Below are positions 31,191 to 61,233 of a DNA stretch of 64,000 bases, piece after piece. The translations under genes and the position numbers were made by a program. This DNA comes from Candidatus Poribacteria bacterium (lineage in GTDB: Bacteria; Poribacteria; WGA-4E; WGA-3G). The notes beneath the pieces were generated by a model, which had not been told where the DNA came from, searched no databases, and saw only the letters and a program-made list of their open reading frames with translations. The stretch lies in NCBI GenBank assembly GCA_963665235.2, contig CAXXLX010000001.1, forward strand, positions 448,001-512,000. The letters are read 5' to 3'. The number at the start of each line of letters is the position of its first letter. Position 1 is the first letter of the stretch.

Positions 31191-32036
31191 ATGAAAGGCC
31201 CGCCTTTATTAAACATTTTATCGCTCGGTCTAATACCGATAGTGCTCACATTGACTGTGTCCGCAGCCAACTTTGATGCAACGGACCTGGTCATCTATTA
31301 CAGTTTTGATGCGGACACACTTGTAGAATTGGACAAGGATGGGCTTGTAGAAACAGATGTTTTAGATAAGTCCGGAAATGGAAACAACGGGCTCCTTCAC
31401 GGCACAAACCTCAAAATTGTGGAAGGTAAAGTGAATGAATGTCTAGAGCTGCCAGGGGCAGCAGCCGAATATGTAGCGGTGAGAAATCTCAATTATGTGG
31501 AAGGAATCCCTGAACTTAGCATGGCTGCTTGGATTAAGACTTCACAAAGAGGCATAATTGCCTCCTGGGACCGCAGCGAATTTTTCCGGTTCGGCGCAGG
31601 CGACGACCAACTCGGAAATACCACCTTTGTCGCCTTTGACATTTGCTGCCCTATACGCGACTGGCACGGAGAAGTCGAAGTTACAGATGACCAATGGCAT
31701 CATGTCGCTGTAACGTTTGATGCTGAAACAAAGCGGATATACGTCGACGGCGAATTGGATATGGAAGCACCGACACACACAAATAATAAACTAATCGGAC
31801 CGAGGGCACAACGGTACGGATTTATCGGCGTTGGCTCAGAAGCAGCCACTTTCGGAGGGCCCCCGGGGCCCACGAACTGGGCTTACAAAGGTTTGATAGA
31901 TGAGTTTCTCTTATTCCATCGAGCACTCTCTGAAGATGAGGTTACGCGCCTTGCCAAAGCCCGTGGGAACCCCTTCGCTGTCGAACCGGACAGCAAATTG
32001 AGCACAACCTGGGCAGAAATTAAAAACGTCAGATAG
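31191..32036 (+). CDS. Secreted LamG/ConA-like protein with C-terminal TTWAEIK tail
   Basis: Signal peptide, WHHVAVTFD, IYVDG, GLIDEF, tail AVEPDSKLSTTWAEIK. Confidence 0.85.
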   Translation: MKGPPLLNILSLGLIPIVLTLTVSAANFDATDLVIYYSFDADTLVELDKDGLVETDVLDKSGNGNNGLLHGTNLKIVEGKVNECLELPGAAAEYVAVRNLNYVEGIPELSMAAWIKTSQRGIIASWDRSEFFRFGAGDDQLGNTTFVAFDICCPIRDWHGEVEVTDDQWHHVAVTFDAETKRIYVDGELDMEAPTHTNNKLIGPRAQRYGFIGVGSEAATFGGPPGPTNWAYKGLIDEFLLFHRALSEDEVTRLAKARGNPFAVEPDSKLSTTWAEIKNVR

Positions 32037-32094
32037 AAAGAAACGGGCGGGCCCCTCATACACCCGTTTTTCTTGTCTCTCCGAAATTGCAATT

Positions 32095-32868
32095 TTAGGC
32101 GTTAGCAGCATCAACTGCCTTTTGAATGCCCGGCCATTCACGCCAAATATCGGTATACCCATCGTAACCGTTTTCCACACAATCAACATGACGGATACGA
32201 AAAATTACCGCGTACCGAACATCAGCCGACGCATTTGGTGCCGCGGAGTGGACTACCTGATGATGTGTCAAAACGACATCGCCTGCCTTGCCGACTATTT
32301 GTGTCGGGCCCTCAGGTAGCTCTGGACGCGGCATGCCGTCTGCTAAAACTTCATGCCCCTCTTTTCTGAAATAGTCTGCAAAAAAACTGTGCGATTTCGG
32401 CCACACCGTGAAATTCCCGCTATACGGCTCCGGAACATCTGCCAAGTAAACAACCGCTAGCGCTGTGAACCCACGCCGGTACACACCCTTTTCCATACCG
32501 TTGCTACCACTTCCAAGTCCATCGAGATGTCCGCGCGGTTCTTTCGCATCACGTGCCAGCGGCATCGGAAACCGAAGGGCTATCTGCGCCGCACCCGGCA
32601 CCTGAACATTGCCTTCACCTAACAACCCCTCCGTTATGTTATGAATAGGCGTTTTACGAAAAATATCCACAATCTGCGGAGCATTCCGAATTTCGTTGCA
32701 ATACGATTGTGCCCGAAACTTCTCAAGATCCCCTTCGTGCATACCAACTGCACCGATAGAATGGTTAATCATCTTCCGAGCAGCATCCACCATCAACTGT
32801 GGTACAACCCCCCGGATTGTGATATACCCGTTTTCATAGAATTCCAACTTCTGTTTTTGCGTAAGCAT
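32095..32868 (-). CDS. PhyH family dioxygenase
   Basis: FYENGY, HLD, GNFTVWPKSH, HSAAPN; start MLTQKQK after GGAGG. Confidence 0.85.
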   Translation of the reverse strand: MLTQKQKLEFYENGYITIRGVVPQLMVDAARKMINHSIGAVGMHEGDLEKFRAQSYCNEIRNAPQIVDIFRKTPIHNITEGLLGEGNVQVPGAAQIALRFPMPLARDAKEPRGHLDGLGSGSNGMEKGVYRRGFTALAVVYLADVPEPYSGNFTVWPKSHSFFADYFRKEGHEVLADGMPRPELPEGPTQIVGKAGDVVLTHHQVVHSAAPNASADVRYAVIFRIRHVDCVENGYDGYTDIWREWPGIQKAVDAANA

Positions 32869-32898
32869 GTTTCTCGCCTCCCAGAGATTTTCTAATAA

Positions 32899-33494
32899 TA
32901 CCATTTCTAATTGAAAATGTCTCTTTCTTGTAGCATAAACTTCCAGTTTGTGCTTTCTTGTAGCATAAACTTCCAGTTTGTGCTTTCTTGTAGCATAAAC
33001 TTCCAGTTTGTGCTTTCTTGTAGCATAAACTTCCAGTTTGTGCCGTTCTCCGTTTCATTTCTAACAACTTAATGGTGAATAATTAATACTTTCTTGTAGC
33101 TTTAGGTTTGATGTTGTGAAAATAAAGGGTGTGTCTTCCCCAGTATTTTTGTGCGCTTTTTGCTTGTAGCATACACCGAGGGTGGTAAGGCCCCGTGTGT
33201 GCTTCGGAGGCCAGTTCTGTACCGCCTTTCTTGTAGCATAAACTTCCAGTTTGTGCTTTCTTGTAGCATAAACTTCCAGTTTGTGCTTTCTTGTAGCATA
33301 AACTTCCAGTTTGTGCCGTTCTCCGTTTCATTTCTAACAACTAGTAATGGTAGAATAATTAATAAAAATGGTATAACGATAATACCATTTCTAATTGAAA
33401 ATGTCTCTTTCTTGTAGCATAAACTTCCAGTTTGTGCCGTTCTCCGTTTCATTTCTAACAACTGGTAATGGTAGAATAATTAATAAAAATGGTA
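32899..33494. mobile_element. Cluster of three family C MITE copies with 4, 3 and 1 x 30-bp REP units
   Basis: Left TIRs at 32899 and 33383, right TIRs ending 33373 and 33494, TAA flanks. Confidence 0.8.
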
Positions 33495-33727
33495 TAATAT
33501 CAAATATACCCTATTTAGACACTGCATTAAGCGAAAAGTTTATAGTATAATATCAAATATAAAAATCCACTACTAACCTTCCACCTCCCCGGCCCTGCCT
33601 CTCAAAAACAGTTGACATTTTTCAAGCATCTCGGTAAACTAAATCTGTCAACGCTAATTTTCTACTATCTTTTTACAGCGCAATGGACTCTAATATACAA
33701 AAATAGCATAAATAGGAGAAACTCAAA

Positions 33728-33964: not shown

Positions 33965-33977
33965 AGGAGGAAAACGT

Positions 33978-34622: not shown

Positions 34623-35822
34623 CTAATTACCAATCAACCAACGATGAAACAGCACCTCCTTACGTCCAGGCTCAACAACCTGTAATAAAACCTCACCCCC
34701 CTCTAGAAAATCTACCGCCATGAAACCGGGATGCTGGTGTGCAAACAGTGTACTTTCGCCATTGCCGACGATTGTAGACTTCTCACTAGACGCAAGCCCA
34801 CTCACGAGCAGATAATCGGTAGTATCCCCCTCTAGAACTTGCAGCGAATGCTCATGTCCAGAGGCGTAAATTAAAAGCGGGGTCTTCTTCGCAGTTGAGA
34901 ACGCGGCATTGAGTTGTGAAACCATGTGTTTGTTCCGAACCCCGTTCATATCTTGTTCAGAGCGGACCAGATGCCACCGCCCCAGCGGATACAGCGAACC
35001 GATGAGGGGCATAGGCACCCAAAGCCATTTTTTCACAGTCCTAGCGGGGAAAAGGTGAACCTTCCAATCAAAAAAACCCCCATGCATACCGTAGGTTTCC
35101 AGCGGATGGTGCCCAACAACCATAACAGGCAATTCAGTGTCTAACATCGTTCTAAGTGAAGCTATAACCGCTTCCTCCGCTTCTTGCGGTTTTTCATATT
35201 TATGTAACCACCACTGCGTATCTAGCACGATAAGCCGGACAATAGGCGCGTCTGCCGGAAGATCAAGTCGGACGGGCCCCGGAAGACCACCACGCGGTAG
35301 GAAATTCGGTTCACGGGAGAGAGCATCGTTGATAAACCTCTCTTGTGCAAGAAGCGCGCTATACCCCGCCTTCCTACCGCCTGCCCAATCGTGATTACCC
35401 GGAATGAACAACCCATGTACCCCCGCAGCTTTGACAACTGCTAATTGTGGACCGAGCCGAGATTCCGCCTCGTGCCTCTTCCGGGCTGTCATCCCCTCCG
35501 GGTACATATTGTCGCCAAGAAAAACAGCACTCGTTTTTTCAGGCTCTTTTTCCGCCCACGCCTGGAGTGTTTTTAACACCGGTTCCCCCGGTTTCGGTTC
35601 TCCGCCGTCCCCAAGAAGTAGAACCCGATAGGCAAACGTGTGTTCCGTTACGACAGCCTGCCTCTCGGCAGCCGGAATTTCCGAACGGTAGTAGGGCGAA
35701 GTATGGCTACATCCCGCAATTGTGAGTTGCCCAACCTGAACAACAAACGCCAGTATAAAAATGCCCCAAAGGAGGTAAGAAGAATGTCCTCGGCGGGGCC
35801 TTAGATGTTTGTAAAATTGCAT
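34623..35822 (-). CDS. Calcineurin-like metallophosphoesterase, probably exported
   Basis: GDGG, LGDNMY, PGNHDW, GHHP, SGHEH. Confidence 0.88.
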   Translation of the reverse strand: MQFYKHLRPRRGHSSYLLWGIFILAFVVQVGQLTIAGCSHTSPYYRSEIPAAERQAVVTEHTFAYRVLLLGDGGEPKPGEPVLKTLQAWAEKEPEKTSAVFLGDNMYPEGMTARKRHEAESRLGPQLAVVKAAGVHGLFIPGNHDWAGGRKAGYSALLAQERFINDALSREPNFLPRGGLPGPVRLDLPADAPIVRLIVLDTQWWLHKYEKPQEAEEAVIASLRTMLDTELPVMVVGHHPLETYGMHGGFFDWKVHLFPARTVKKWLWVPMPLIGSLYPLGRWHLVRSEQDMNGVRNKHMVSQLNAAFSTAKKTPLLIYASGHEHSLQVLEGDTTDYLLVSGLASSEKSTIVGNGESTLFAHQHPGFMAVDFLEGGEVLLQVVEPGRKEVLFHRWLIGN

Positions 35823-35963
35823 TCGCTTTTAAGATTCCGTGAAGTAGTGGGTCCGGTTAAAATTCGTTTTTATGCCGCGCAGGACTTACGAAAATTTAGG
35901 CGATATCCTCGTTCGTAGGGGCGAGGTCCCCTCGCCCACTAGGTTTCCCTCTAAATCCGATTA

Positions 35964-37322
35964 TCATAAGGGTTCATCAACGCGCTGCGTAACTCCTGCC
36001 GCTATTAACTGCTTTATCCGAGCTACAATGCTGTTCAGTGGCACATTTTCCTGTTCTCTACTTGCCAAATCACGGATTGCAGCGTTCCCCGCAGCCAACT
36101 CATCCGAACCGAGGATAATAGCGTACGGAATGCCCTTTGCATCAGCATATTTCAGCTGCGTCCCAAGCCGGGCAGACTCAAAATAAACCTCTGTCCGAAC
36201 ACCCGCCTCGCGTAGAAGCATCGCCAGTTTGAGCGACTCTTCCATCAGGTCATCATCAAAAACTGTCATTAATACCTGCGTCACCGTCTTACCTACAGTG
36301 TCCGGAAACATGGAAAACGTCTCCATCACGTCAATAATCCGTTCAATGCCGAAACTTGTTCCGGTTGCGGGGTAGCTCTGCTTGCTGAAACTTCCGATAA
36401 GTTCATCATATCTGCCCCCTCCAGTGAGACTTCCGATTTTCAGTTCTTTAAAAACCGTTTCGTAAATCGGGCCGGTGTAGTATTCCAAACCGCGCACCAT
36501 AGCGACATTTACCTTGTAGCACGTGTCCGGCACACCGAGTATCGTGAGATAACGGATTAACTCGTTCAATTCAGCGATACCCGCCTTAGCTGCTGCTATA
36601 TGTCCGAGCTGCGTCTCAAGTTCACCAAGAACAGACTCTGGCGGTCCTTCAATCTGCAGCAGTGCCAGCAATTTCTCAATCACCGGCTCAGGAATCTCAT
36701 TTTCTTGCAACTCTGCAGTAACACCTTCCAATCCGATTTTATCCAATTTATCGATGGAACGATAGAGACCGCCAAGTTGTTCTGAAGGCACACCCGCGAA
36801 CTCCCCTATCCCCGTAATCAGTTTTCTATCATTGATAGCAATCTCAAATTGCATGAAACCGAGTCGGGAGAGCACCTGATATATGAGACTGACATTTTCC
36901 GCATCAGCTAACATACTCTCGCTGCCGACGGTGTCCGCGTCACACTGAAAAAATTGACGGTAGCGTCCCTTTTGAGGCCGCTCCGCTCGCCACACAGGGT
37001 CAATTTGGTACCGCTTAAACGGCTTTGGCAATTGTGGATACATAGCCACCACTCGACAGAGCGGGACGGAGAGGTCATAGCGGAGCGAGATATCCTCTTT
37101 CCCACCCGGGTGACCCGCCTGATAAATCAGCTTTTCTGCATCCGGACCGTATTTTCCATTGAGCACCTCAGATAATTCAAGTGCGGGGGTCTGCAAGGGT
37201 TCAAACCCAAATTCCTCAAATACTTCACGAATCTTATCTATAACGTACCGCCTCCGAATCATCTGCTCCGGTAAGATGTCTCGCATCCCACGCGGGACGC
37301 GCGGTTTAATAAAGGGTGCCAT
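35964..37322 (-). CDS. hisS: Histidyl-tRNA synthetase
   Basis: RYDLSVP, RAERPQKGRYRQF, RGLEYYTG, GGGRYD, GIERI, anticodon-binding domain. Confidence 0.95.
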   Translation of the reverse strand: MAPFIKPRVPRGMRDILPEQMIRRRYVIDKIREVFEEFGFEPLQTPALELSEVLNGKYGPDAEKLIYQAGHPGGKEDISLRYDLSVPLCRVVAMYPQLPKPFKRYQIDPVWRAERPQKGRYRQFFQCDADTVGSESMLADAENVSLIYQVLSRLGFMQFEIAINDRKLITGIGEFAGVPSEQLGGLYRSIDKLDKIGLEGVTAELQENEIPEPVIEKLLALLQIEGPPESVLGELETQLGHIAAAKAGIAELNELIRYLTILGVPDTCYKVNVAMVRGLEYYTGPIYETVFKELKIGSLTGGGRYDELIGSFSKQSYPATGTSFGIERIIDVMETFSMFPDTVGKTVTQVLMTVFDDDLMEESLKLAMLLREAGVRTEVYFESARLGTQLKYADAKGIPYAIILGSDELAAGNAAIRDLASREQENVPLNSIVARIKQLIAAGVTQRVDEPL

Positions 37323-37334
37323 AAATTCTCCTCC

Positions 37335-38105
37335 TTAAATGTGTCCAGGAAGTGTTTGACTTCTGCGCCGCCGCAATCCACTTGCCAACGTCTGCTTCAA
37401 TTCTTCAATCTTCTCGCGTTTCCACGAATCCTCAAGCGACTTCGGGTTTGCAATTAACGTCGATTCAGACTCACGCAGCACCTCAATAATTTTCAGATGG
37501 TTTGCCTTGAGCGTACGCGCTGAGCTGCAATTATCAATAATAGCATCCGCCTCCTCCGGCGGTTTTCCCTCTGTCGCCCCGAAAGACAGCATGAGTGTGA
37601 TAGGGGACTGGTAAGTACCGAGCGTGTTCAGACGTTTCCAAGGCGTTAGGATAGCGGGGGCAACACGGTTTTCAGTCTTTTCAAGGATATATTTCTCCGC
37701 TATGTTCAGATATTCGGTAGAAATACGGATGTTTCTATCAGCAAGGTTAACCAAATCCACGAACGTCTTAATGTCTTCTCGCTCCTCTCGAACCGCGAGG
37801 ACAATACTAACGTACCCATAAGCCAACGGCAGTATTTCCTCAACATCCGCATCCGTCTCTTCAACCCAATCCTGTCCTGTTATTCCCAAGTCGTAAAAAT
37901 TGTCCATGCCAACATAGACCGGAATCTCCTGGGGACGTGAAATTTTTATCTGGAATTCGTTATTATTGTGAAAGCTAGCACGATAGGACCGGTCGGTTGA
38001 CTTGTAACCGTTTATTTCGTAACCAGCACGTTGAAACATTTCAAGCGTCTCAGACTGTATAGTGCCTTTCGGCAAAAGTAAATTCAGCACTCTTTCTGTT
38101 TGCAT
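37335..38105 (-). CDS. hisG: ATP phosphoribosyltransferase, short form
   Basis: LPKG, RPQEIP, DLGITGQDW, GATE; lacks the C-terminal regulatory domain. Confidence 0.9.
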   Translation of the reverse strand: MQTERVLNLLLPKGTIQSETLEMFQRAGYEINGYKSTDRSYRASFHNNNEFQIKISRPQEIPVYVGMDNFYDLGITGQDWVEETDADVEEILPLAYGYVSIVLAVREEREDIKTFVDLVNLADRNIRISTEYLNIAEKYILEKTENRVAPAILTPWKRLNTLGTYQSPITLMLSFGATEGKPPEEADAIIDNCSSARTLKANHLKIIEVLRESESTLIANPKSLEDSWKREKIEELKQTLASGLRRRRSQTLPGHI

Positions 38106-38137
38106 AATTAGTTTCCCCAATCCTTAAGTAAGGTATA

Positions 38138-40086: not shown

Positions 40087-40139
40087 AGCCGTTTCTCCAA
40101 TAAACGTAAAAGACACTCCGTTGCTATAGCGTCCATTAC

Positions 40140-43747: not shown

Positions 43748-46609
43748 ATGAAAAACCAATTTTTCAATAGGAGAACCCTGTTTTTCCTATTGGCGATTGT
43801 AACATGTTTGGGATTTACAGCCATGAGTTACGGTGCAGCCACTGTCTCGGTTGATCCCGCTACACTTGAATCCCCAGCGGCCGGGGAACAATTCACAGTA
43901 GATATTACCATAGCAGGCGGCGCAGGCATCGCTGGTTACCAGGTAACCGTAAACTTCGATTCGACTGCGCTCAGTTATGTCTCTATTGCATATCAAGAAG
44001 ATTATCTTGAGAAACCCGCGGACCTATTAAGCCCCGTTACCGTATCTGATAATAGCGTAGTTTTTTGGGCAATAGGTGGTGCGCCGGATGGGGATCACAC
44101 CCTTGCTACGATAACATTTGAGGTTGTGGAAGCGAAAGAATCCGCCATTACCCTATCAGATATTGTTCTTTCTGATGCTGCTTCAGATGCATTAGAAGTC
44201 ACAACAGTAGATGGGGCGATTACTGTTCCCGCGACAGAAGAGCCAACAGACCCAACGGATGAACCAACAGACCCAACGGATGAACCAACAGATCCGACTG
44301 ATGAGCCAACAGACCCAACGGATGAACCAACAGATCCGACTGACGAGCCAACAGACCCAACGGATGAACCAACAGATCCGACTGACGAGCCAACAGACCC
44401 AACGGATGAACCAACAGATCCGACTGATGAGCCAACAGACCCAACGGATGAACCAACAGATCCGACTGACGAGCCAACAGACCCAACGGATGAACCAACA
44501 GATCCGACTGACGAGCCAACAGACCCAACGGATGAACCAACAGACCCAACGGATGAACCAACAGACCCAACGGATGAACCAACAGATCCGACTGAACCAA
44601 CGGAACCGACCGTAGCTACCGTTTCTGTCACTCCCGATACATTTGAATCTCCAGCGGTTGGGGACCAATTCTCTATAGATATTACCATAGCAGGTAGTGC
44701 AGGGGTTGCCGGTTACCAGGCGACTGTAAACTTTGATTCGACTGCACTCAGCTATGTCTCTATTGCATATCGAGAAGACTATCTTGAGAAACCCGCGGAC
44801 CTCTTAAACCCCGTTAATGTATCCGAAAATAGCGTACATTTCTGGGCGTTGGGTAGTGCACCGGATGGTGACCACACGCTTGCTACGATAACATTTGAAG
44901 TGATTGAGGCGAAAGAATCCGCTATTACCTTGTCAAACGTTCTACTTTCTGATGCTGCTTCAGGTGCATTGACAGTCACAACTACAGATGGAATGATCAT
45001 TGCTCCCTCGACAGAGCCACCAGAGCCGCCAGTGGAACCAAAAGAGCAACTCTTTGAAATTACCCTCACCAGCCTCACCGTGGGACCACCGGGAGGACAA
45101 ATCTTTTCGCCACCCATCTTTGCTACACACACATCAGCGGCAAATCTCGGCATGGTTGGGGAACCCGCCAATCCGGCACTCGTCACCCTTGCTGAAACTG
45201 GAGCTGTCTCAGGGTTACTTGCACTTGCTGGAGCCGTAGGCGCGAATACTGCTGTCGCAGATGGGCTAGTTCTTCCGGGCCAGTCCGTTACCGTTCGGTT
45301 AACTGGCAACGCAATGAACAATTCACTTACCGCCGCGGCAATGTTAGTTTCAACAAATGATGGGTTCATCCTTGGCAGTATACCGCTCTACGATGAGGAC
45401 GGTATGCCTGTGTCCACAACGTTGGATTTAATAGCTTTCGATGCAGGTAGCGAAGAAAACACAGAGCTTGCATCCGATATTCCGGGGCCGACCGCTGCCC
45501 TTGAGGAAAACCCAGGCGCAACCAATGCGCGTGTACCAACAGAAGATGGCGTAATCATGCCACACCCTGGCGTTCAAGGCATTGGCGATTTGCCCCCAAC
45601 ACTTTTAGGTTGGACAGAACCGGTGGCGACCCTAACAATCACCCCGGTATCCGATGAAGAGCCACCGGTAGACCCGGAGCCACCGGAACCTACCGAACCT
45701 AGCTATGACATCGTGCTTGAACGCGGATTAAACATGATCGCTGTTCCGCTGATGCCCGAAGAGCCCTACACAGCGGCATCGCTTGCCGAAAAGTTAGGCG
45801 CAACAATTGTCATCAAATTAGAGGCTGACACACAGCGACTCCTCGGCTATTCCGCAGCTGAAGAAGGAGATGGCTTCGCTATCGAAGGTGGAAAAGGGTA
45901 CATCGTCAATACACCCACAGGTGGAACCGTAACATTTACAGGCACTGCATGGAACAACCAAACTGTTGATGCACCCGCTGCACCGAGTACCACCACCGCT
46001 AAGAACGCCTGGGCATTCGTTATCACAAGTCAATTGCATGATAAAGAACCCGGGGCATCTTACACCCTAGTGTCCAAAAACCTTCGCACGGGAGTTGTCG
46101 CAACCAAGAATGTTACCAGCGACGATGCAAGCAGCTCAACTGCCTGGGCAAATCTCGACCTCCAGAGCGTCGTTGAAGCCGGTGATCGGGTTGAAATTAC
46201 ACTCCTCGACGAACGCGGCACCGTTGTCTCCGGACCGTTTGAACGCACAATTCAAACCTCCGATATTCACAACGCATATCTGAGCGTGCAGCTGCGAGTT
46301 GGCGATGTCCGTCCGAACGAAACACTCCTCGGACAGAACTTCCCGAACCCGTTCAACCCCGAAACATGGATACCTTATCAACTGAATCGCGACACCCTCG
46401 TGACCATTGAAATCTTTGATGTTTCCGGGCATTTGGTTCGTACGCTAGACCTAGGACATAAGTCAACAGGCACATACATGACGACTTCAACAGCAGCTTA
46501 TTGGGATGGGAAAAATGACGCAGGCGAAGCTGTCTCCAGCGGGATATATTTCTATGTCCTCAAAACAGAGAACTTCTCTGCAACGCGCAGAATGGTCATC
46601 CTCAAGTAG
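43748..46609 (+). CDS. Secreted scaffoldin-like protein: cohesin, PT linker, cohesin, Spondin_N, T9SS type A/FlgD-like CTD
   Basis: Two AGYQxTVNFDSTALSY cohesin-like repeats; FSPPIFATH, LAETG, MLVSTNDGF, FDAGSEEN (Spondin_N); QNFPNPFNPETWIPY, WDGKN, SGIYFY. Confidence 0.82.
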   Translation: MKNQFFNRRTLFFLLAIVTCLGFTAMSYGAATVSVDPATLESPAAGEQFTVDITIAGGAGIAGYQVTVNFDSTALSYVSIAYQEDYLEKPADLLSPVTVSDNSVVFWAIGGAPDGDHTLATITFEVVEAKESAITLSDIVLSDAASDALEVTTVDGAITVPATEEPTDPTDEPTDPTDEPTDPTDEPTDPTDEPTDPTDEPTDPTDEPTDPTDEPTDPTDEPTDPTDEPTDPTDEPTDPTDEPTDPTDEPTDPTDEPTDPTDEPTDPTDEPTDPTDEPTDPTEPTEPTVATVSVTPDTFESPAVGDQFSIDITIAGSAGVAGYQATVNFDSTALSYVSIAYREDYLEKPADLLNPVNVSENSVHFWALGSAPDGDHTLATITFEVIEAKESAITLSNVLLSDAASGALTVTTTDGMIIAPSTEPPEPPVEPKEQLFEITLTSLTVGPPGGQIFSPPIFATHTSAANLGMVGEPANPALVTLAETGAVSGLLALAGAVGANTAVADGLVLPGQSVTVRLTGNAMNNSLTAAAMLVSTNDGFILGSIPLYDEDGMPVSTTLDLIAFDAGSEENTELASDIPGPTAALEENPGATNARVPTEDGVIMPHPGVQGIGDLPPTLLGWTEPVATLTITPVSDEEPPVDPEPPEPTEPSYDIVLERGLNMIAVPLMPEEPYTAASLAEKLGATIVIKLEADTQRLLGYSAAEEGDGFAIEGGKGYIVNTPTGGTVTFTGTAWNNQTVDAPAAPSTTTAKNAWAFVITSQLHDKEPGASYTLVSKNLRTGVVATKNVTSDDASSSTAWANLDLQSVVEAGDRVEITLLDERGTVVSGPFERTIQTSDIHNAYLSVQLRVGDVRPNETLLGQNFPNPFNPETWIPYQLNRDTLVTIEIFDVSGHLVRTLDLGHKSTGTYMTTSTAAYWDGKNDAGEAVSSGIYFYVLKTENFSATRRMVILK
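44240..44593 (+). repeat. About 17 x 21-bp coding repeat (EPTDPTD linker)
   Basis: Direct repeats with synonymous variants. Confidence 0.95.
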
Positions 46610-47422: not shown

Positions 47423-47453
47423 GATTAATTATACGGTAGAGGTGTCGGTTTTG

Positions 47454-50400
47454 ATGTATCTAAAAAATATCCTATCTATCTCACTCGGACTTATACTCTT
47501 TCTCGCAGCAAGCAACGGAAATGTACTTGGCTACTCCTTTAATCCCCCTGATGGACTAACAGGAGCACCCAATGAAGGCAACTGTACACAGTGCCACGCA
47601 GGCAATGCCCTGAACGACTCAGATGGCTCCCTGATTTTGACTATACCTGAAAACTATTCACCAGGTGAAACCTACGATATTGTTGTCAAATTATCACACC
47701 CAGGACAAAAAAGATGGGGATTCGAAATGACAGCACTGAATAGTAGCGGGACACGCGCCGGCACCTTTGCTACAGCAGATGGAAATACACAAGTTTCTAC
47801 AGCAGGTGGAAAGCAATACATTAAACAGACTCTCTCCGGCGTAGCCACCGATAAAGCAGACTCCAACAGCTGGACATTTAAATGGACTGCACCCACCACC
47901 GATGTCGGAACTATAACATTTTACGCTGCAGGAAACGCTGCAAATAGTGATTTTACCTTCCGGGAAGATTATATCTATACCCAAAAAGCGACATCGGACG
48001 CTCCCCCTATTTATGGGCTTACGCTAATAGGCGTAGGTGCCTTGACAAAACAAACCGCAGATCCAAGTTCAGGTGTTAGTTATACGCTCCAGCTCACGAA
48101 CACCGGCAACACAACCGATACGTTTAAACTATCAACGTCAGGAGCTGTGGCTGCTACCCTCAGTCGCACCACTGTCTCCCTCACACCTAATGCTTCCACC
48201 CAAGTAACAGCCAAAATCGCTGGGACCGCGCTATCGGCTGCGGGAACTTATGATGTCAAGGTTACAGCAACTTCACAAGGGGATAGCGCGCAAACTGCTG
48301 ATATTACAACGACAACAACGGTCCTGCCTATTTACGATGTTACGTTAGCCGGCGTAGGCGCGGTGGCAAAACAGACCACAGACGCAAGCGCGGGGGTTAG
48401 TTATACGCTTCGGATTACAAACACGGGAAATACAACCGATACGTTTAGACTATCAACATCAGGCGATGCGAATGCTACCGTCAATCGAACCTCTGTATCG
48501 CTTGGGCGTGGCGCATCTACCCAGGTAACGGTAACAGTGTCTGACCCTGTGCTATCAACCGCGGGAACTTATGATGTCAAGGTTACAGCAACTTCACAAA
48601 GCGATACAACACAAACCGATGATATTACAACAAAAACCACTGTCCCACCTGTTTACGGGGTCACGCTAACCGGTGTAGGTGCGCTGGCAAAACAGACCAC
48701 AGACGCAAGCACAGGCATCAGCTATACACTCAAAATCACAAACACGGGAAACACAAACGATACGGTTAAACTATCAACATCAGGCGATGCAAATGCTACC
48801 CTTAGCCGGTATGCTATCTCACTTGCGCGCGGGGCTTCCACACAAGTGACAGTGAGGGTTTCTGGTGCTGCACTCGCCGCCGCGGGGAGTTATACTGTCA
48901 AGGTTACAGCAGCATCACAAAACGATACTACAAAAACCGATGACATTACAACAAAAACCACGATCCTCCCGGTTTACGGGGTTGCGTTAGCAGGGGTAGG
49001 CGCACTAGAAAAAGAGACCTCAGATATGAGTTCGGGTGTCAGTTATAGTTATACGCTTCAGGTCAAAAACACAGGAAACACAGATGACACCATACTGCTT
49101 AGCTCCTCAGCAGAAGTCGGCATTGAGGGAAGTGTGCTCGGAACATTCACTCAAACAGGCACACAAGCACAGCAGGTCAGCCAGTTAGAGGTTACACTAG
49201 CCGCCGGAAAATCTGCCGAAGTTATCTTTACAGCAGCAGGGGATGTCTTTACAAAACCGGGCGAATACACAATCGAAGTTACAGCAACTTCGCAAAACGA
49301 TACTACAAAAACCGCCCAAGCAACAACCACTACAACCGTTTTACCTGTTTACGGGGTTGCGTTAGCAGGTGTAGGTGCACTGGCAAAACAGACCACAGAC
49401 GCACGCGCAGGCAGCAGCTATACACTTCGCATTACAAACACGGGAAACACAGACGACACGATACTGCTTAGCTCCTCAGCAGAGGTCGGCATTGGCGGAA
49501 GCGTGCTCGGAACATTCACTCAAACAGTGCGCAAGCACAGCAGACCAGCCAGTTAGAGGTTACCCTTTCCACCGGAACATCTACAGAGGTTATCTTCACA
49601 GCAGCAGGAGACCTTCTTACAAAACCGGGCGAATACACAATCGAAGTTACAGCAACTTCGCAAAACGATACTACAAAAACTGCCCAATCAACAACCACTA
49701 CAACGGTTTTACCTGTTTACGGGGTTGCGTTAGCAGGTGTAGGTGCACTGGCAAAACAGACCGCAGACGCACGCGCAGGCAGCAGCTATACGCTTCGCAT
49801 TACAAACACGGGAAACACAGACGACACGATACTGCTCAGCTCCTCAGCAGAGGTCGGCATTGGCGGAAGCGTGCTCGGAACATTCACCCAAACAGGTGCG
49901 CAAGCACAGCAGACCAGCCAGTTAGAGGTTACCCTTTCCACCGGAACATCTACAGAGGTTATCTTCACAGCAGCAGGAGACCTCCTTACAAAACCGGGCG
50001 AATACACAATCGAAGTTACAGCAACTTCGCAAAACGATACTACAAAAACTGCCCAAGCAACAACCACTACAACGGTTTTACCTGTTTACGGGGTTGCGTT
50101 AGCAGGTGTAGGTGCACTGGCAAAACAGACCGCAGACGCACGCGCGGGCAGCAGCTATACGCTTCGCATTACAAACACGGGAAACACAGACGACACGATA
50201 CTGCTCAGCTCCTCAGCAGAGGTCGGCATTGGCGGAAGCGTGCTCGGAACATTCACCCAAACAGGTTCACAAGCACAGCAGGGCAGCCAGTTAGAGGTTA
50301 CCCTTTCCACCGGAACATCTGCCGAGGTTATCTTCACAGCAGCAGGAGACCTCCTTACAAAACCGGGCGAATACACAATCGAAGTTACGGCAACATCGCA

Positions 50401-51352
50401 AAACGATACTACAAAAACTGCTGAAGCAACAACCACTACAACCGTTTTACCTGTTTACGGGGTTGCATTAGCAGGTGTAGACGAGCTGACAAAAGAGATA
50501 GCGACAGCAGGCGAACCGGTCAGCTATACGTTCAAAATCACAAATACAGGCAACACAGCCGATGTCATAGATATAGCAACGACAGGCGATGCGGCCGCCA
50601 CATTAAGTCAGACCACTATCTCACTATCCGCCGGGGCTTCAGCAGAAGTGACGATGACAGTCCCTACGACCGCACTAGCAACTGCCGGCGATTACGTTGT
50701 CACGTTTACAGTCACTTCCCAGGGGGATAGCACACAAACCGCTAAAACGACAACCACAACCACTCTTCTGCCAGTTACACCGGTTTATAGTGTCACGTTT
50801 GAAGGGGATAGTGAACATACTGGCTCAACCGTGGATGTGCTGTCGGGTGTGAGTTATACACTCACGGTCACAAACACCGGGAATATGGATGACACGATAC
50901 TGCTTGGCTCTTCAGCAGAGGCTGGCATTGAAGGGAGTATGCTCGGGGCATTCGCTGCTATAGATTCACCAGAACAGCGGAGTGGTCAGTTAGAAGTTGT
51001 ACTAGCCGCCGGAACATCTGCCGAGGTTATCTTCACAGCGGCAGGAGATTTCTTTACAAAACCGGGCGACTATGCAATTGAAGTTACGGCAACATCGCAA
51101 GCGGATACCACAAAAACCGCCGTGCTTACCATAACAACAACGATAACCCCTGTACCCTCAGACGTGAATGCTGATGGGGTGGTAAATATTTTGGATTTAG
51201 TGAAAGTTGCCAATCAATTCGGTGAAGTTGGCGATGGTCTCGTTGGGGATGTGAACATAGATGGGCGCGTAAATATCCTTGATTTAGTAAAGGTCTCCTC
51301 CCGTTTCGGTAAGACCCAAGTGGAGATTGTCGAAATCTTGCCGCCCCTTTAA
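47454..51352 (+). pseudogene. Large secreted protein (Reeler-like domain, Ig-like repeats, C-terminal dockerin) split by a 1-bp frameshift
   Basis: One G missing at ~49527 (ACAGTGCG vs ACAGGTGCG in the next 369-bp repeat); restoring it gives about 1299 aa. TGAPNEGNCTQCH, WTFKWTAP, FYAAGNAAN; dockerin DVNADGVVNILDLV...DVNIDGRVNILDLV. Confidence 0.8.
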
Positions 51353-55404: not shown

Positions 55405-55467
55405 AAATTTTACGCTTTTAAAAAAAGGTTGACAACTGTCGAAATTTAAGATATGATGTCATTGTAA

Positions 55468-55951
55468 TACCATTTCTAATTGAAAATGTCTCTTTATTGT
55501 AGCATAAACTTCCAGTTTGTGCCTTGTAGCATAAACTTCCAGTTTGTGCCTTGTAGCATAAACTTCCAGTTTGTGCCTTGTAGCATAAACTTCCCTTGTA
55601 GCATAAACTTCCAGTTTGTGCCTTGTAGCATAAACTTCCAGTTTGTGCCTTGTAGCATAAACTTCCAGTTTGTGCCTTGTAGCATAAACTTCCAGTTTGT
55701 GCCTTGTAGCATAAACTTCCAGTTTGTGCCTTGTAGCATAAACTTCCAGTTTGTGCCTTGTAGCATAAACTTCCAGTTTGTGCCTTGTAGCATAAACAGT
55801 TTGTGCCTTGTAGCATAAACTTCCAGTTTGTGCCTTGTAGCATAAACTTCCAGTTTGTGCGTTATTGTAGCATAAACTTTTAGTTTGGGTCTTCCGTTCT
55901 CCGTTTCATTTCTAACAACCGGTAATGATAGAATAATTAATAAAAATGGTA
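55468..55951. mobile_element. Family C MITE with 15 REP units (27-bp period)
   Basis: Both TIRs, TAA flanks, two internally deleted units, degenerate last unit. Confidence 0.88.
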
Positions 55952-55991
55952 TAAGTAAACTGTAAGAGTATGTCAGAATTTTAAAAAAAAG

Positions 55992-56020
55992 TTGACAATT
56001 TTCGAAATTTAAGATATAAT
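55992..56020 (+). promoter_or_regulatory. Consensus sigma70 promoter
   Basis: TTGACA-17-TATAAT; homologous copies at 58796-58824 and ~55429-55457 (TATGAT). Confidence 0.8.
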
Positions 56021-56045
56021 GTCCTTGTAAATCATACTTTTATTT

Positions 56046-56552
56046 GGGGTTTGACAATGAAAAACCGACAAGCACAATCGCTATTGAGAAAAGAACGTAG
56101 TAGATGCCTTCGAGCTAGGCAGGATTGTCCGCGCAGAATACCTATCGGTTTCTACATTAACTTTCCGTTAAACCCCCCCCTTAATAAATTTTCTTATTTG
56201 TTAATTATTTTACGTCGTATTGCAGGATTTAAAATCTGCGATATTTCGCGCCCGCACGTACTTCGTCCACGACGAAGTGTACAGTTGCGGGCTTTTGTTG
56301 TTGCATCGGAGTGTACTTCCGTTCCGCATCTGTACCGTGCGTGACAGCGGAATATAATAGGACAGTACACATCGAACAAAACAAATTTAAGGTCTCTGTC
56401 CATTAAACTGTCTGATATAACAGTGTTTAAGGAACTTGATAGTTCACGTAATACTGTTCAATTAGATAACCGAGACCTAATTTACGACACCTTGGAACCG
56501 AGGGAAATCTGTAAATCCCTTTGTGTACCAAAACTATAAGGAGAAATTCTAA
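56046..56552 (+). ncRNA. Candidate structured 5' leader RNA, copy 1
   Basis: Homologous to 58884-59384; GGGGTTTGAC pairs with GTTAAACCCC; ends in RBS AAGGAGA. Confidence 0.5.
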
Positions 56553-57002
56553 GTCAATAACCCCCCGCTAAAGCGTGGGGGCTTGTCCAAGATGGTAGCC
56601 ACCCTGTAACTTGGGTGAGGGCAACTTATTGACTACCGTAATATATCGCGATATCGAGGCGTGGCAGCCTCAACGTATCCATTAAAACGCTATAGTCAAG
56701 TGGTAGTTTCTATAGCTAGGTCCTGCTCCCCAAGGGTTGGGTTCATGCGGGTATCGTGATCGGGATGGGGCAATATACACTCCGAAAGGAGACTTACCTG
56801 TTTTCTCAAAGATACCGTGTCAGGTCAAGTAAACAGAAAGTGCGAGTTCTGTTGAACGAAGCAGCACAGTTTGCGAGGAGCGCCTACGGGAAACTTGTGG
56901 CGAAAAAACAACCCGACTCCCCTTTGGGGGAAATCTAAAACGAATAGGAGCGGTGTTTCCTCCCCCGCATAAATGCTGGGGGTTTCCACACCGAATATTT
57001 TG
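56553..57002 (+). mobile_element. HEARO/IscB omegaRNA-like non-autonomous element
   Basis: Starts GTCAATAACCCCCCGCTAAAGCGTGGGGGCTTG, ends TTTCCTCCCCCGCATAAATGCTGGGGGTTTCC...TTG|ATGA; absent from the paralogous leader. Confidence 0.78.
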
Positions 57003-57698
57003 ATGAAAATTATGTTAGTATTAGCAGGATTTATGTTGATGATAGCCTTTGTTATTATCAGCACAAGCGACATGGTATGGGCGGAGGAAGTCTTGGGAAC
57101 AGGAACCGGCTCACTGATAGGCGGCGACCTAACCGACCCAGAAGACGATGGTCAACCTGAAACAGATGACGGTTACAACGCTGTTTTCACAGCCAACGAA
57201 GAACCCGGTTTCGGGGGCGGGGAATCTGCGTTTAACGTCTTCGATAACCGCCTTGGCCCCGGCAATGACAAATGGTGCTGCGGACGTGGCGGCGGCATTC
57301 CGGACGAAGGTCTACACGTGACAGCTGAATTTGACGAGCCGTACGCATTGACACACTTCACCGTATCCTCAGCGAACGATGTTCCTAATAGGGACCCTAC
57401 AGAATGGGAAATTCAGGGGTCGAACGACGGCAAAGAATTCACGACCATCTTTTCTCACAAGGGGGATAGCTTCTGGGATCAGCGACTGCAAGTCGTCCTT
57501 TTTAAGGCTGGAAAAGATTACGACGTTCAAAAAATCGGGTACAAGTTTTTCCGGCATGTTACTTTTAACACCGCAGCGAACCCGGCTGGAGCGTACTTTC
57601 AAATTGGCGAAATAGAGTACTTCGGCGATGATAGTTATCCCGTAGACCCTAGAACCAAGCTCACAACCACATGGGGAAGCATCAAAAACGCCCGATAA
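57003..57698 (+). CDS. Secreted discoidin/F5-8-like protein with TTWGSIK tail
   Basis: Signal peptide, SANDVPNRDPTEWEIQGSNDG, QIGEIEY. Confidence 0.8.
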   Translation: MKIMLVLAGFMLMIAFVIISTSDMVWAEEVLGTGTGSLIGGDLTDPEDDGQPETDDGYNAVFTANEEPGFGGGESAFNVFDNRLGPGNDKWCCGRGGGIPDEGLHVTAEFDEPYALTHFTVSSANDVPNRDPTEWEIQGSNDGKEFTTIFSHKGDSFWDQRLQVVLFKAGKDYDVQKIGYKFFRHVTFNTAANPAGAYFQIGEIEYFGDDSYPVDPRTKLTTTWGSIKNAR

Positions 57699-57932
57699 GC
57701 ACAAATATCTGACATTTCTAAATCGGCTTGAATCCAGTAATAACTGGGTTTAAGCCGATTTCCACACAGGTGTCCAATCAGAAACACCCACACTCGGCAT
57801 TAGACTATTTGACACCTATCGAATTTCAACGACAAAACTGCACAAACATTAATAAAGATTGGTATGGTAATGGGTGCAGTTTATTCAAACTCACGTAAAA
57901 GTGAGATTCATTTCTATAGGAGATGGCACATT

Positions 57933-58631
57933 ATGAAAATTATGTTAGTATTAGCAGGATTTGTGTTGATGATAGGCTTTCTTGTTATCGGCACAAGCGA
58001 CATGGCATGGGCAGAGGAAGTCTTGGGAACAGGAACAGCCTCGCTGCTAGGAGGTGACCTAACCGACCCAGAAGACGATGGTAGTCCCGATGCAGACGAA
58101 GGTTACAACGCCATTTTCACAGCCAATGAAGAACCCGGTTTCGGGGGCGGCGAATTTTCCTTTAACGTCTTTGATAACCGCCTTGGCGGCGGCAATGACA
58201 AATGGTGCTGCGGACGTGGTGGCGGCATTCCGGACGAAGGCCTACACATAACAGCTGAACTTGAAGATCCGTATGTATTGACACACTTCACCGTATCCTC
58301 AGCGAACGATGTTCCCGCAAGAGACCCTACAGAATGGGAAGTTCAGGGCTCGAACGACGGCGAAGACTTTACGACCATCTTTTCTCACTCCGGGGATAGC
58401 TTTTGGACTGCGCGACTGCAAGTCGTCCTTTTTGAGGCTGGAAAAGATTACGACGCTCAAACCACCGCGTATCGGTTTTTTCGGCATGTTACCTTTAACA
58501 CCGCATCGAACCCAGCTGGAGCGTACTTTCAAATTGGCGAAATTGAATACTTCGGCGCTGATAGTTCGACCGCTGTAGACGCTAAAGCCAAGCTCACAAC
58601 CACATGGGGAAGCATCAAAAACGCCCGATAA
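57933..58631 (+). CDS. Tandem paralog of the upstream discoidin-like protein
   Basis: Highly similar sequence, RBS AGGAG, same tail. Confidence 0.8.
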   Translation: MKIMLVLAGFVLMIGFLVIGTSDMAWAEEVLGTGTASLLGGDLTDPEDDGSPDADEGYNAIFTANEEPGFGGGEFSFNVFDNRLGGGNDKWCCGRGGGIPDEGLHITAELEDPYVLTHFTVSSANDVPARDPTEWEVQGSNDGEDFTTIFSHSGDSFWTARLQVVLFEAGKDYDAQTTAYRFFRHVTFNTASNPAGAYFQIGEIEYFGADSSTAVDAKAKLTTTWGSIKNAR

Positions 58632-58653
58632 GCACAAATATCTAACACTTCCT

Positions 58654-58698
58654 AAAACGGCTTGAATCCAGTAATAACTGGGTTTAAGCCGTTTTTTT
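58654..58698 (+). terminator. Intrinsic terminator
   Basis: CGGCTTGAATCCAGT-aata-ACTGGGTTTAAGCCG plus T tract; the paralogous hairpin at ~57724-57760 lacks the long T tract. Confidence 0.75.
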
Positions 58699-58795
58699 AT
58701 ATCCACTTGAAACCGTGAGGGTGAAAACTTTTTTCAAACTCGCGTTTTTGATAAATAAATCGTCCGGCTGAAAATTTGACGATTTCAAAAAAAGG

Positions 58796-58824
58796 TTGAC
58801 AACTGCCGAAATTTAAGATATAAT
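58796..58824 (+). promoter_or_regulatory. Consensus sigma70 promoter
   Basis: TTGACA-17-TATAAT. Confidence 0.8.
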
Positions 58825-58883
58825 GTCTTTGTAAATTGTATGAGCGGAAAACTTTGTTACCGCATATCTCATTTTTCATATCC

Positions 58884-59384
58884 GGGGTTTGACAATGCAA
58901 AACCGACAAGCGACATCACTATCCAGAAATGAACGCAATAGATGCCTTCGAGCTAGGCAGGATTGTCCGCGCAGGGTGCCTATTGATTTTAGCGTATCGT
59001 TAAACCCCCCCCTTAATAAATTTTCTTACTCGTTAATTATTTTACGTATCGCAGGATTTAAAATCTGTGATATTTCGCGCCCGCACGTCCTTACGTCCTT
59101 CGTCTATCACGAAGTACTTGCGGGCTTTTGTTATTGCATTGGAGCGTACTTCTGTTCCGCATCCGTACCATGCGTGCCAGCGGGATATAATAGGACAGTA
59201 CGCCTCGAACGAAACAAATCCAAGGTCTCTGTCCATTAAACTGTCTGATATAACAGTGTTTAAGAAACTTGATGGTTCACGTAATACTGCTCAAGTAGGT
59301 AACCGAGACCTAATTTACGACACTCTGGAACCGAGGGGAATCTGTAAATCCCTTCGTGTACCAAAACTATAAGGAGAAATCTAA
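58884..59384 (+). ncRNA. Candidate structured 5' leader RNA, copy 2
   Basis: Homologous to 56046-56552; leads directly to ATG 59385. Confidence 0.5.
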
Positions 59385-60230
59385 ATGAATTTCAAAGCTA
59401 TAAAAGTGGTTTGTATCCTCAGCCTCTTACTTACCTCTATTTGGTACGTAAACGCGGTTGATGCACAACTTGATGAAAACACAGTTGCTGGCATGTGGAC
59501 CTTTGAAGAAGGTGAAGGCACAGTCGTCAAAGACCTCTCCGGTAATGGAACCGATGGAGCGTTTGTTGGTAGCTTAGAATGGGTCGATGCCAAATTCGGT
59601 GGTGGGTTAAAGTTTGATGGCACAAACACTTGGATTAAACTCGGAACAAAAGGTGATGCGGATAGTTTAGCGGCTTTGCAAGTTAAGGATTTAGCAGGGT
59701 TCTCTGTCCACGCCTGGGTCTATTCGGAAGTAGCTCCAACTGGCAAATGCGTTGTTTGGAAAGGCCTTGGGTGTTCAACCTGGTCACAGTTCCGTCTGGG
59801 AACAGGTTCTCACGAAAACGGGGACAACAGTACAAAGGCATCGTTTCACATCCGAGCTGGAAACGGCGGTGCTAGGCTTGAAGTTCTCGGTGATGACCTG
59901 CCTGCTGGAGAATGGCTGCATCTCGTTGGCACCTGGGACGGAACCAAAAATCACATCTACGTCAACGGCGAACTCCAAGCATCCGCAGATGCATCACAAC
60001 CCCCTTGGGCATCCCCTGAAGAGGTCTACATCGGGGCCGACCCTGGCTGCGGTAAGCGGGGACAGTGGAACGGTATCATGGACGAAGTCGCTATCTTTAA
60101 CGTAGCACTCTCAGCCGAGCAGGTTGCAGAGCTCGGGCAAGGTCTTGACGCTGCTTTAGGAAGAGCCACACCGGTTGACCCCATCGGGAAAACAGCAACA
60201 ACCTGGGGCAAACTCAAAAATAGGAAGTAA
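59385..60230 (+). CDS. Secreted LamG-like protein with TTWGKLK tail
   Basis: WTFEEG, WLHLVGTWDG, IYVNG, GIMDEV. Confidence 0.85.
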   Translation: MNFKAIKVVCILSLLLTSIWYVNAVDAQLDENTVAGMWTFEEGEGTVVKDLSGNGTDGAFVGSLEWVDAKFGGGLKFDGTNTWIKLGTKGDADSLAALQVKDLAGFSVHAWVYSEVAPTGKCVVWKGLGCSTWSQFRLGTGSHENGDNSTKASFHIRAGNGGARLEVLGDDLPAGEWLHLVGTWDGTKNHIYVNGELQASADASQPPWASPEEVYIGADPGCGKRGQWNGIMDEVAIFNVALSAEQVAELGQGLDAALGRATPVDPIGKTATTWGKLKNRK

Positions 60231-60390
60231 CGTGCATGTGTTATGGAATAGAACGGTCTGTTTCGACGCTGTTCCAGAACATCGAAAAACTTGCTTTATG
60301 GTGAAGCGATATATAGCGTGTTCCTGTATTTTTTAGTATATTATCGACTGTTTGTTACATAGACAGTCTCAAAAAATAGGAGAAATATAG

Positions 60391-61233
60391 ATGTTTCTTT
60401 ATAAATGTTATGCGAAACTGACACTCACCGCACTTACGCTCATTTTTATCAGTTTTGCCGTGATAACAGTGCCAACTGACGCGAAAATCGACGAAGCTAC
60501 GATTGTCGGAATGTGGACCTTTGAAGAAGGAAAAGGCAATACCGTCGGCGACAGCTCAGAAAACGAGAGCGATGGCACATTTGTCGGCGATCTGAAATGG
60601 GTAAAAGGTAAATTCGGCGGTGGACTGGAGTTTAACGGAGATACGTGGGTTAAGATTGGGGAGAAGGGCAACGCAGACTCCCTAGCAGCCCTAGATTTTA
60701 AAGCCGCCGAAGGATTTTCAATTCACGCTTGGGTCTATTCTGAAGTAGCACCCGGCGGCAAATGTGTAATCTGGAAAGGACTTGGATGCTCAACCTGGTC
60801 ACAATGGCTACTCGGAACCGGGGCACATGAAAACGGGGACAACAGCGCAAGGGCAGCATTCCATATCCGCGCCGGAAACGGGGGTGCTAGAAATGAGGCA
60901 CTCGGCGCTGAACTTCCCGCAAAAGAGTGGATTCATCTCGTAGGTGTTTGGGATGGAGAAAACGTTTATGTCTACGTTAACGGTAAATTATCCGGTGAAG
61001 CCCCCGCAGCAGGCCCCCCTTGGGCTTCAGGAGAGGAAGTTTACATGGGAGCTGATCCTGGCTGTAATAAACGGTGCCTGTGGGACGGTATCATGGACGA
61101 GATTGTTATCTTCAACGTTGTACTTGCTGAAGCTGAAATTAAATCACTCGGCAATGGAATTGAAGGTGCCCTAGCTGTAGATGCCGGTGGAAAAGCAACA
61201 ACGACCTGGGGTAAACTCAAAGCTGTCAAATAG
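60391..61233 (+). CDS. Tandem LamG-like paralog with TTWGKLK tail
   Basis: Shares WKGLGCSTWSQ and GADPGC with the upstream gene. Confidence 0.85.
   Translation: MFLYKCYAKLTLTALTLIFISFAVITVPTDAKIDEATIVGMWTFEEGKGNTVGDSSENESDGTFVGDLKWVKGKFGGGLEFNGDTWVKIGEKGNADSLAALDFKAAEGFSIHAWVYSEVAPGGKCVIWKGLGCSTWSQWLLGTGAHENGDNSARAAFHIRAGNGGARNEALGAELPAKEWIHLVGVWDGENVYVYVNGKLSGEAPAAGPPWASGEEVYMGADPGCNKRCLWDGIMDEIVIFNVVLAEAEIKSLGNGIEGALAVDAGGKATTTWGKLKAVK

Follow-up and report, generated by a model that had tools for sequence, protein, structure and literature searches.

We analysed a 64,000-nucleotide (nt) stretch of DNA from Candidatus Poribacteria bacterium (contig CAXXLX010000001.1, positions 448,001 to 512,000; hereafter the window), in which five secreted proteins of two unrelated folds end in a shared short C-terminal peptide, referred to below as the tail. 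Three are LamG proteins with a signal peptide, encoded at 31191..32036 (281 aa), 59385..60230 (281 aa) and 60391..61233 (280 aa). The other two are a discoidin/CBM32-like protein at 57003..57698 (231 aa from its likely start at 57003, in an open reading frame (ORF) that opens at 56973) and its discoidin-like paralogue at 57933..58631 (likely start 57933, ORF opening at 57864). All five genes lie on the + strand and are designated here by their start positions. The proteins end in AVEPDSKLSTTWAEIKNVR (31191), PVDPRTKLTTTWGSIKNAR (57003), AVDAKAKLTTTWGSIKNAR (57933), PVDPIGKTATTWGKLKNRK (59385) and AVDAGGKATTTWGKLKAVK (60391). The tails, each recovered by regular expression, by translation and by the DNA pattern described below, read VEPDSKLSTTWAEIK followed by NVR in protein 31191 (31980..32033), VDPRTKLTTTWGSIK followed by NAR in 57003 (57642..57695), VDAKAKLTTTWGSIK followed by NAR in 57933 (58575..58628), VDPIGKTATTWGKLK followed by NRK in 59385 (60174..60227) and VDAGGKATTTWGKLK followed by AVK in 60391 (61177..61230), all on the + strand. 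Their window consensus is V-[DE]-[PA]-x-x-K-x-x-T-T-W-[GA]-x-[IL]-K, after which exactly three residues precede the stop codon in all five genes. A sequence-only reading of the same DNA had pointed to these five signal-peptide proteins and to their tail three residues from the stop, and all five were found where it had placed them.

The two folds that it had named, LamG and discoidin-like, are borne out by family and fold searches. Pfam assigns Laminin_G_3 to the three LamG proteins at 60.9–93.4 bits (60.9 bits over residues 94–251 of protein 31191). F5_F8_type_C scores 31.8 bits in the 56973 ORF (cut-off 28.2) and 28.1 bits, marginally below the cut-off, in the 57864 ORF, and a Foldseek search with the AlphaFold2 (AF2) model of the discoidin-like protein retrieved CBM32/discoidin structures at a best E of 6e-07. 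Recent duplication accounts for the two discoidin genes, which are 89% identical over their first 300 nt. LamG proteins 59385 and 60391 share 65% identity, and proteins 31191 and 59385 share 25%; the five genes represent three independent carrier lineages.

Within the window the tail is confined to these proteins. The expression TTW[AG]..K, applied to every stop-to-stop frame of 40 aa or more in the six-frame translation, matches these five only, and a looser expression adds one unrelated internal match in a 55-aa frame (35539-35706, - strand). A loose C-terminal expression retrieves the same five tail proteins from 361 window frames of at least 60 aa. At the DNA level, a 45-nt degenerate pattern encoding V-[DE]-x3-K-x2-T-T-W-[GA]-x-[LIM]-K, with no stop codon included, matched all five window tails and gave no match in 100 dinucleotide-preserving shuffles.

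The Kyte-Doolittle maximum over 15 aa reaches 2.35–3.06 in the N-terminal signal regions of the five proteins and lies between -0.50 and 0.61 in their last 30 aa, where no transmembrane (TM) segment is found by this scale, as had been proposed from the sequence. This bears on the idea that the tail arose by degeneration of a PEP-CTERM-like (exosortase-type) or other sortase-type signal, V-E/D-P then corresponding to PEP and the basic end to the arginine cluster. The succession of V-[ED]-[PA], a short semi-hydrophobic stretch and basic residues is consistent with such an origin, and NCBI, which names other carriers 'discoidin domain-containing', labels three orthologues (P0029, P0052 and P0248) 'PEP-CTERM sorting domain-containing protein'. 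However, the two invariant lysines are separated by eight residues, which, at a hydropathy of 0.61 or less, form no TM segment. In addition, P0029, P0052 and the isolated tails matched no NCBIfam family, PEP-CTERM included, at E<=10, and the label could not be reproduced. We therefore regard this origin as very unlikely.

Beyond the window, we scanned a species-representative genome collection with the 45-nt pattern, which carries about 37 bits and by our own estimate should produce a handful of chance matches collection-wide. The scan yielded at least 130 loci, a sample rather than a census, and among the matches listed Poribacteria appears in the record title of 126 of the 130 loci, in agreement with the mention, in the sequence-only reading, of similar tails in Poribacteria-like genomes. 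Named orthologues of the window discoidin protein are all labelled Candidatus Poribacteria, and the tag appears to be specific to this group. The 130 listed loci contain 167 pattern matches, corresponding to 134 distinct tails, and in 133 of these a stop codon follows 1–8 codons after the motif. The number of residues between the last motif lysine and the stop is most often three (62 tails), followed by two (26), four (24), five (10), one (6), six (2), eight (2) and seven (1), with a single tail at 43. Tail genes cluster, often in tandem, with at least two in 41 of 72 4-kb loci.

A tail-only hidden Markov model (HMM) of 21 positions, built from alignment A3 and searched against 1.84 billion representative proteins, matched 363 proteins at E<=0.001, many of the top matches being short gene fragments. 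In 141 of the best 150 of these 363 matches the motif lies no more than 6 residues from the protein end; the other 9 carry unconserved extensions of 11–59 residues, at least one of which resembles read-through into the next gene. Among 425 neighbouring frames of the loci, a T-T-W-type core is present in 6, always 3–6 residues from the end and never internally, and looser variants of the tail end 26. A word-based protein search with the discoidin tail region returned discoidin orthologues only and is uninformative on portability.

Within the 2-kb flanks of the listed loci we identified 81 complete carriers of 209–420 aa, and all 81 begin with a signal-peptide-like N-terminus (79 called by an automatic hydropathy criterion and 2, with non-ATG starts, by inspection). 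Both the association with signal peptides and the strictly C-terminal position suggested by the sequence-only reading hold in this larger set, and the converse picture, in which the motif would occur internally or on cytoplasmic proteins as often as on secreted ones, is not what we found. When signal peptide and tail are removed, the bodies fall into 21 blastp clusters at E<1e-5, the largest comprising 40 LamG proteins and 11 members of an unnamed family; the latter resembles poribacterial clusters, in one of which DUF4960 is found on 55% of the members. Pfam recognizes Laminin_G_3 in 43 of the 81 carriers, 3keto-disac_hyd in 3, F5_F8_type_C, CBM_4_9, CBM9_1 and DUF3108_like in 2 each, DUF4960 and PA14 in 1 each, and no family in 25. 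The 36 tail-HMM hits of at least 150 aa extend the list to a PD40 propeller in P0148 and a lone cohesin module in P0187, bringing the tail to at least eight Pfam families. The proposed portable tag of about 20 aa is thereby upheld; it is joined by a variable linker to carriers that are mostly single modules, and no catalytic domain was seen by Pfam among the sampled carriers. The modules are of binding or scaffold type, the 3keto-disac_hyd members counting as 3-keto-disaccharide-hydrolase-like lectin folds. One shorter protein (P0060, 156 aa) combines a PNP_UDP_1-annotated N-terminus with a discoidin end and the tail; this call is probably chimeric or mis-assembled.

The overall consensus of the tail is [LTF]-[APS]-V-[ED]-[PA]-x-[GDN]-K-L-[AT]-T-T-W-[GA]-x-[LI]-K, followed by 1–8 mostly polar or basic residues and the stop. 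Composition is biased also at positions left free by the search pattern: in 131 listed tails, P or A stands at +2 in 124, L at +6 in 108 and A, T or S at +7 in 129, while A, P or S is preferred ahead of V, and G, D or N at +4. V-[ED]-P accounts for 86 of the 131 and V-[ED]-A for 38, and the residues trailing the last lysine are mostly R, K, Q or S. Every synonymous codon is used for the invariant residues (for Thr8 in the listed tails, ACG 40 times, ACA 40, ACC 30 and ACT 19), and Leu at +6 is encoded by six codons. Since the codons vary and the residues are fixed, selection acts on the tail at the protein level.

Conservation is equally evident in a search that is not biased towards the tail. 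Using the discoidin body only (residues 28–205), we obtained 543 hits, of which the best 120 (68–99% identity) are all close orthologues, with no distant homologue bearing another anchor among them. Among the 58 discoidin orthologues newly seen in this way, 53 keep the tail; of the remaining 5, four are frameshifted calls that lose it by a shift into the +1 frame (P0252, P0262, P0268 and P0271) and in the fifth W-R replaces W-G. Averaged over the columns of the orthologue alignment, conservation reaches 0.85 in the domain, drops to 0.46 in the four-residue linker and is again 0.85 in the tail. These results bear on the explanation that shared DNA, for example a mobile cassette or a terminator-bearing element, happens to be translated at gene ends and that the tail has no function as a peptide. 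The two discoidin copies do have identical tail DNA and the same downstream hairpin, but their identity stems from recent gene duplication. Moreover, the DNA 3' of the tails is different and unrelated among the three window lineages, orthologues keep the tail as well as the domain, and across families all synonymous codons are used with the residues fixed. We consequently give the shared-DNA explanation next to no weight.

Structure prediction places the tail outside the folded modules. AF2 models made with family alignments have confident cores for both the discoidin-like protein and LamG 59385 (mean predicted local distance difference test (pLDDT) 70 and 89, respectively; 89.1 for the latter to one decimal place), while the last 19 residues fall below a pLDDT of 50 in both (tails at 57642..57695 and 60174..60227) and lie outside the core beta-sandwich. 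The discoidin tail has no secondary structure in its model, and that of LamG 59385 shows one short low-confidence helix only (residues 247–251). The tail is thus predicted to be unstructured on both folds, and it does not model as an integral strand of either domain, an outcome that would have spoken against a tag. No intramolecular docking of the tail is seen in the two monomer models. When whole proteins and isolated tails were searched against Pfam-A and NCBIfam release 20, no model matched the tail, and a tail profile run against PDB sequences gave a single chance-level match (E 0.15). A literature search on poribacterial C-terminal sorting, the secretion system of type IX (T9SS) and the motif found no description of the tail, the supplementary tables of Kamke 2014 lying outside its coverage.

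A short, disordered and conserved peptide could also serve in other ways, for instance in self-association of the modules, as a C-terminal propeptide or as a tag for a periplasmic protease or chaperone. The varying number of residues that trail the motif (1–8) argues against a reading of the free carboxyl end, in keeping with such roles. Yet about 19 residues conserved equally on 21 unrelated bodies exceed the specificity of known degradation tags, the monomer models contain no intramolecular docking, and nothing indicates oligomers. A role of this kind is improbable in our judgement.

The tail is one of three kinds of C-terminal module on exported proteins of the window, the others being a T9SS-type C-terminal domain (CTD) and a type I dockerin. 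The CTD belongs to a scaffoldin-like protein at 43748..46609 (+ strand) that was recognized with Pfam and NCBIfam and comprises two cohesins, a spondin-like domain (NF038123, 104.5 bits) and a T9SS type-A-like CTD (TIGR04183, 33.9 bits, cut-off 23); its two 45%-class cohesins have a long (EPTDPTD)n linker between them. The dockerin ends an Ig-repeat (choice-of-anchor T-like) protein at 49871..51352 (+ strand; Pfam PF00404 27.3 bits, NCBIfam). This choice-of-anchor V/T Ig-repeat dockerin protein is split over overlapping frames (47442-49556, 49375-50424 and 49871-51352), which could reflect frameshifts, assembly errors or a broken gene. A C25 peptidase with a propeptide domain lies at 3..3128 (- strand), its C-terminus cut by the window edge; it scores 262.9 bits with Peptidase_C25, and the partial ORF scores 269.7 bits with the PorU model NF033707, below the cut-off of 420. 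The PorU-like C25 peptidase and the CTD protein mentioned in the sequence-only reading are accordingly both present.

Homologous modules carry one ending or the other. P0187 (179 aa) consists of a signal peptide, one cohesin and the tail, and its cohesin is 45% identical (E 6e-25) to cohesin 1 of the 43748 protein, which bears the CTD, so that the same module is found with either ending. PD40/WD40 modules occur with the tail or with tail and CTD together: in one WD40 family, comprising P0216-P0218 (279–323 aa) and L108 (1-645), the tail motif immediately precedes a complete CTD. In L108 the CTD resumes in another frame past a stop, which suggests from the sequence that a frameshift interrupts it. 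If the CTD of this family were removed as in Bacteroidota, the tail would, by analogy, again be C-terminal.

These arrangements help in weighing two further explanations. According to the first, the tail would direct secretion across the outer membrane in the manner of a small-scale T9SS CTD, being read and removed by an export machine without any part in retention. Its strictly C-terminal position on Sec-dependent proteins of many folds, its lack of structure in the AF2 models and the occurrence of CTD-type signals and a PorU-like C25 peptidase in the same window are all consistent with this. In P0216-P0218 and L108, however, the tail is kept immediately upstream of a complete CTD, a redundancy if both served export; no export machinery is linked to the tail, and the known T9SS export signal is, according to PMC4804311, a folded beta-sandwich. 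We consider the secretion-signal explanation rather unlikely. According to the second, the tail is a mini-dockerin that binds the cohesins of scaffoldin-like proteins such as that at 43748-46609. A cohesin scaffold is indeed present in the window, and binding modules as carriers would fit a surface assembly. Against it, next to the cohesin gene lies a canonical type I dockerin, by which a cohesin partner is already explained, a cohesin module (P0187) is itself tail-bearing, and the tail has no duplicated calcium-binding segments. Complex prediction with cohesin 1 of the 43748 protein (residues 28–168) and tail alignment A2 gave a score of 0.02 (mark 0.32), which counts neither way. The mini-dockerin explanation retains a bare one-in-many chance.

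Taken together, these results show the tail to be a real short linear motif, conserved and portable, at the C-terminus of Sec-exported modules for binding or scaffolding. We favour, with a probability of roughly one half, the reading that it is a lineage-specific envelope sorting or anchoring tag of Poribacteria, because its carriers are binding modules that need placement rather than enzymes, because homologous modules use a CTD instead, and because one family keeps the tail ahead of a CTD. We postulate that, after Sec export of the carrier, the module would fold and the tail would remain unstructured, to be read as a short linear motif by a lineage-specific component of the envelope. In the likeliest mode the K-L-[AT]-T-T-W-G-x-L-K stretch, which is strand-like, would pair with an outer-membrane receptor or processing enzyme, and the module would thereby be retained or displayed, presumably on the cell surface. 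The role of the tail would then parallel that of the T9SS-type CTD and of the dockerin in other poribacterial surface proteins.

Several points weigh against this reading. First, the pattern itself fixes six residues, hence their invariance is imposed in the locus set, and a sample of at least 130 listed loci underlies the taxonomic restriction as well as the family census. Second, 4 of the 130 listed loci have non-poribacterial titles, namely two 'uncultured bacterium' metagenome-assembled genomes (MAGs), one 'Pseudomonadota' MAG and one 'Planctomycetota' MAG on a 4.3-kb contig; the 'Pseudomonadota' MAG comes from a bin series shared with a poribacterial MAG. Third, the combination of tail and CTD in one WD40 family argues against simple interchangeability of the two, and the carriers could be periplasmic or released instead of surface-bound. 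Fourth, no recurrent non-cargo neighbour that might be a receptor, protease or transport candidate was found within the 2-kb flanks of the tail genes. Clustering of the 425 neighbouring frames returned more tail carriers, PD40 propellers and FG-GAP-like proteins, and no cohesin or C25 homologue adjoins the tail genes in these flanks, the sole match being a CTD region in L064. Lastly, Kamke et al. 2014 (PMC3909097) report many TIGR04183 domains in Poribacteria and no Por structural genes in poribacterial single-cell genomes, so that any route across the outer membrane would be conjectural even for CTD proteins.

The envelope-tag reading has a more far-reaching form, which we put forward tentatively as a possibility. 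The tail might define an unrecognized sorting system of Poribacteria, in which a short tag without TM helix or domain would be served by a dedicated receptor or sortase-like enzyme, the first such system in a diderm. Lectin-like modules, propellers and cohesins would then cover the cell surface, alongside orphan T9SS-type CTDs, and the lectin-like modules would form a large and fast-diversifying set there.

The genes around the tails offer some further observations. A duplicated segment of about 600 nt (55963-56552 and 58767-59390, 81% identity) opens with a perfect TTGACA-17-TATAAT promoter. The first copy of this consensus sigma-70-like promoter (55992..56020, + strand; 12 of 12 hexamer positions) stands at the head of the discoidin pair's long leader, and the second (58796..58824, + strand; from sequence comparison and motif scoring) at the head of the LamG pair's leader. 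The duplicated segment may be a shared regulatory leader. Rfam returned zero families at gathering score over the whole window, the duplicated leaders thus corresponding to no known RNA, and the leader was not found in other tail loci. Upstream, a 27-nt unit (TTGTAGCATAAACTTCCAGTTTGTGCC) is repeated in tandem at least 13 times (55470-55905), just 3' of a near-consensus sigma-70-like promoter at 55429-55457; ORFs called over the array (55418-55843 and others) are repeat artefacts. Stretches like the 27-nt unit are also seen near tail genes in five other loci (L009, L026, L032, L048 and L065).

Elsewhere in the window, LamG gene 31191 is flanked by three PhyH (phytanoyl-CoA dioxygenase) genes (28218-29033, - strand; 30250-31038, + strand; 32095-32904, - strand); the distribution of poribacterial phyH and its gene clusters are covered by Kamke 2014 (PMC3909097), to judge from the titles of its supplementary tables. 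Two histidyl-tRNA-synthetase-like genes flank hisG (35964-37322, 37335-38120 and 38653-40116, all on the - strand), an unremarkable arrangement in which one of the pair is probably HisZ, the regulatory subunit, and its partner HisS. Two putative endonucleases of the Uma2 family are encoded at 26576-27181 and 61415-62176, the second gene lying directly after the tail-gene cluster.

Poribacteria are dominant uncultivated symbionts of sponges, and little is known of how they display proteins on their surface. One tag on hundreds of secreted glycan-binding modules provides a computational handle on the poribacterial surface proteome, and through it on proteins that are candidates for binding the host or matrix. 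Many carriers have in common the tryptic peptide L-[AT]-T-T-W-[GA]-x-[LI]-K, which can be traced in sponge metaproteomes and would tell there whether the tail is kept or removed, and the tail is a concrete bait for its machinery. If it is a sorting signal, it adds a new type to the catalogue of C-terminal signals, which we compare here with the known ones.

One close parallel is the T9SS type A CTD (TIGR04183/PF18962) with the PorU sortase. Like the tail, this CTD acts as a signal at the C-terminus of Sec-exported proteins that have many unrelated folds; the two co-occur in the organism and in the window, and either may be found on homologous cohesin and WD40/PD40 modules. The CTD, however, is a folded beta-sandwich of about 70–100 aa, whereas the tail has 19–25 aa, is predicted to be unstructured and has no beta-strand; CTD models match neither the five proteins nor the isolated tails at E<=1 to 10, and in one family the tail and the CTD follow each other. 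PEP-CTERM signals, and likewise LPXTG, GlyGly-CTERM and PGF-CTERM signals, resemble the tail in outline, with an acidic-proline motif, a short less polar stretch and a basic end, and share with it a strictly C-terminal position, many paralogues per genome and restriction to a lineage. The tail differs from them in having neither a TM helix nor an HMM match. The type I dockerin, with its cohesin, is a C-terminal module that places secreted proteins on a surface scaffold, as the tail would, but it is a duplicated calcium-binding module of about 60–70 aa (two segments of about 22 residues), and the tail has no repeats and no PF00404 match.

Two other classes of terminal peptide also resemble the tail. 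Encapsulin cargo-loading peptides are C-terminal, span about 10–20 residues with a small G-x-[LI]-K-like core near the end, and are disordered until bound. Their cargo is cytoplasmic, whereas the tail carriers all have signal peptides, and no encapsulin gene turned up in general Pfam scans of the window. The beta-signal of outer-membrane proteins and the donor strands of chaperone-usher and type V pili are short strand-forming terminal peptides read by strand pairing, which is the recognition mode proposed here for the tail. The beta-signal, however, ends in an aromatic residue and the tails in 1–8 variable polar or basic residues; these systems, moreover, handle barrels or pilins, and the tail carriers are soluble beta-sandwich modules. 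In kind the tail would be a C-terminal sorting signal, yet it is unlike every described type, being neither a membrane span nor a folded domain.

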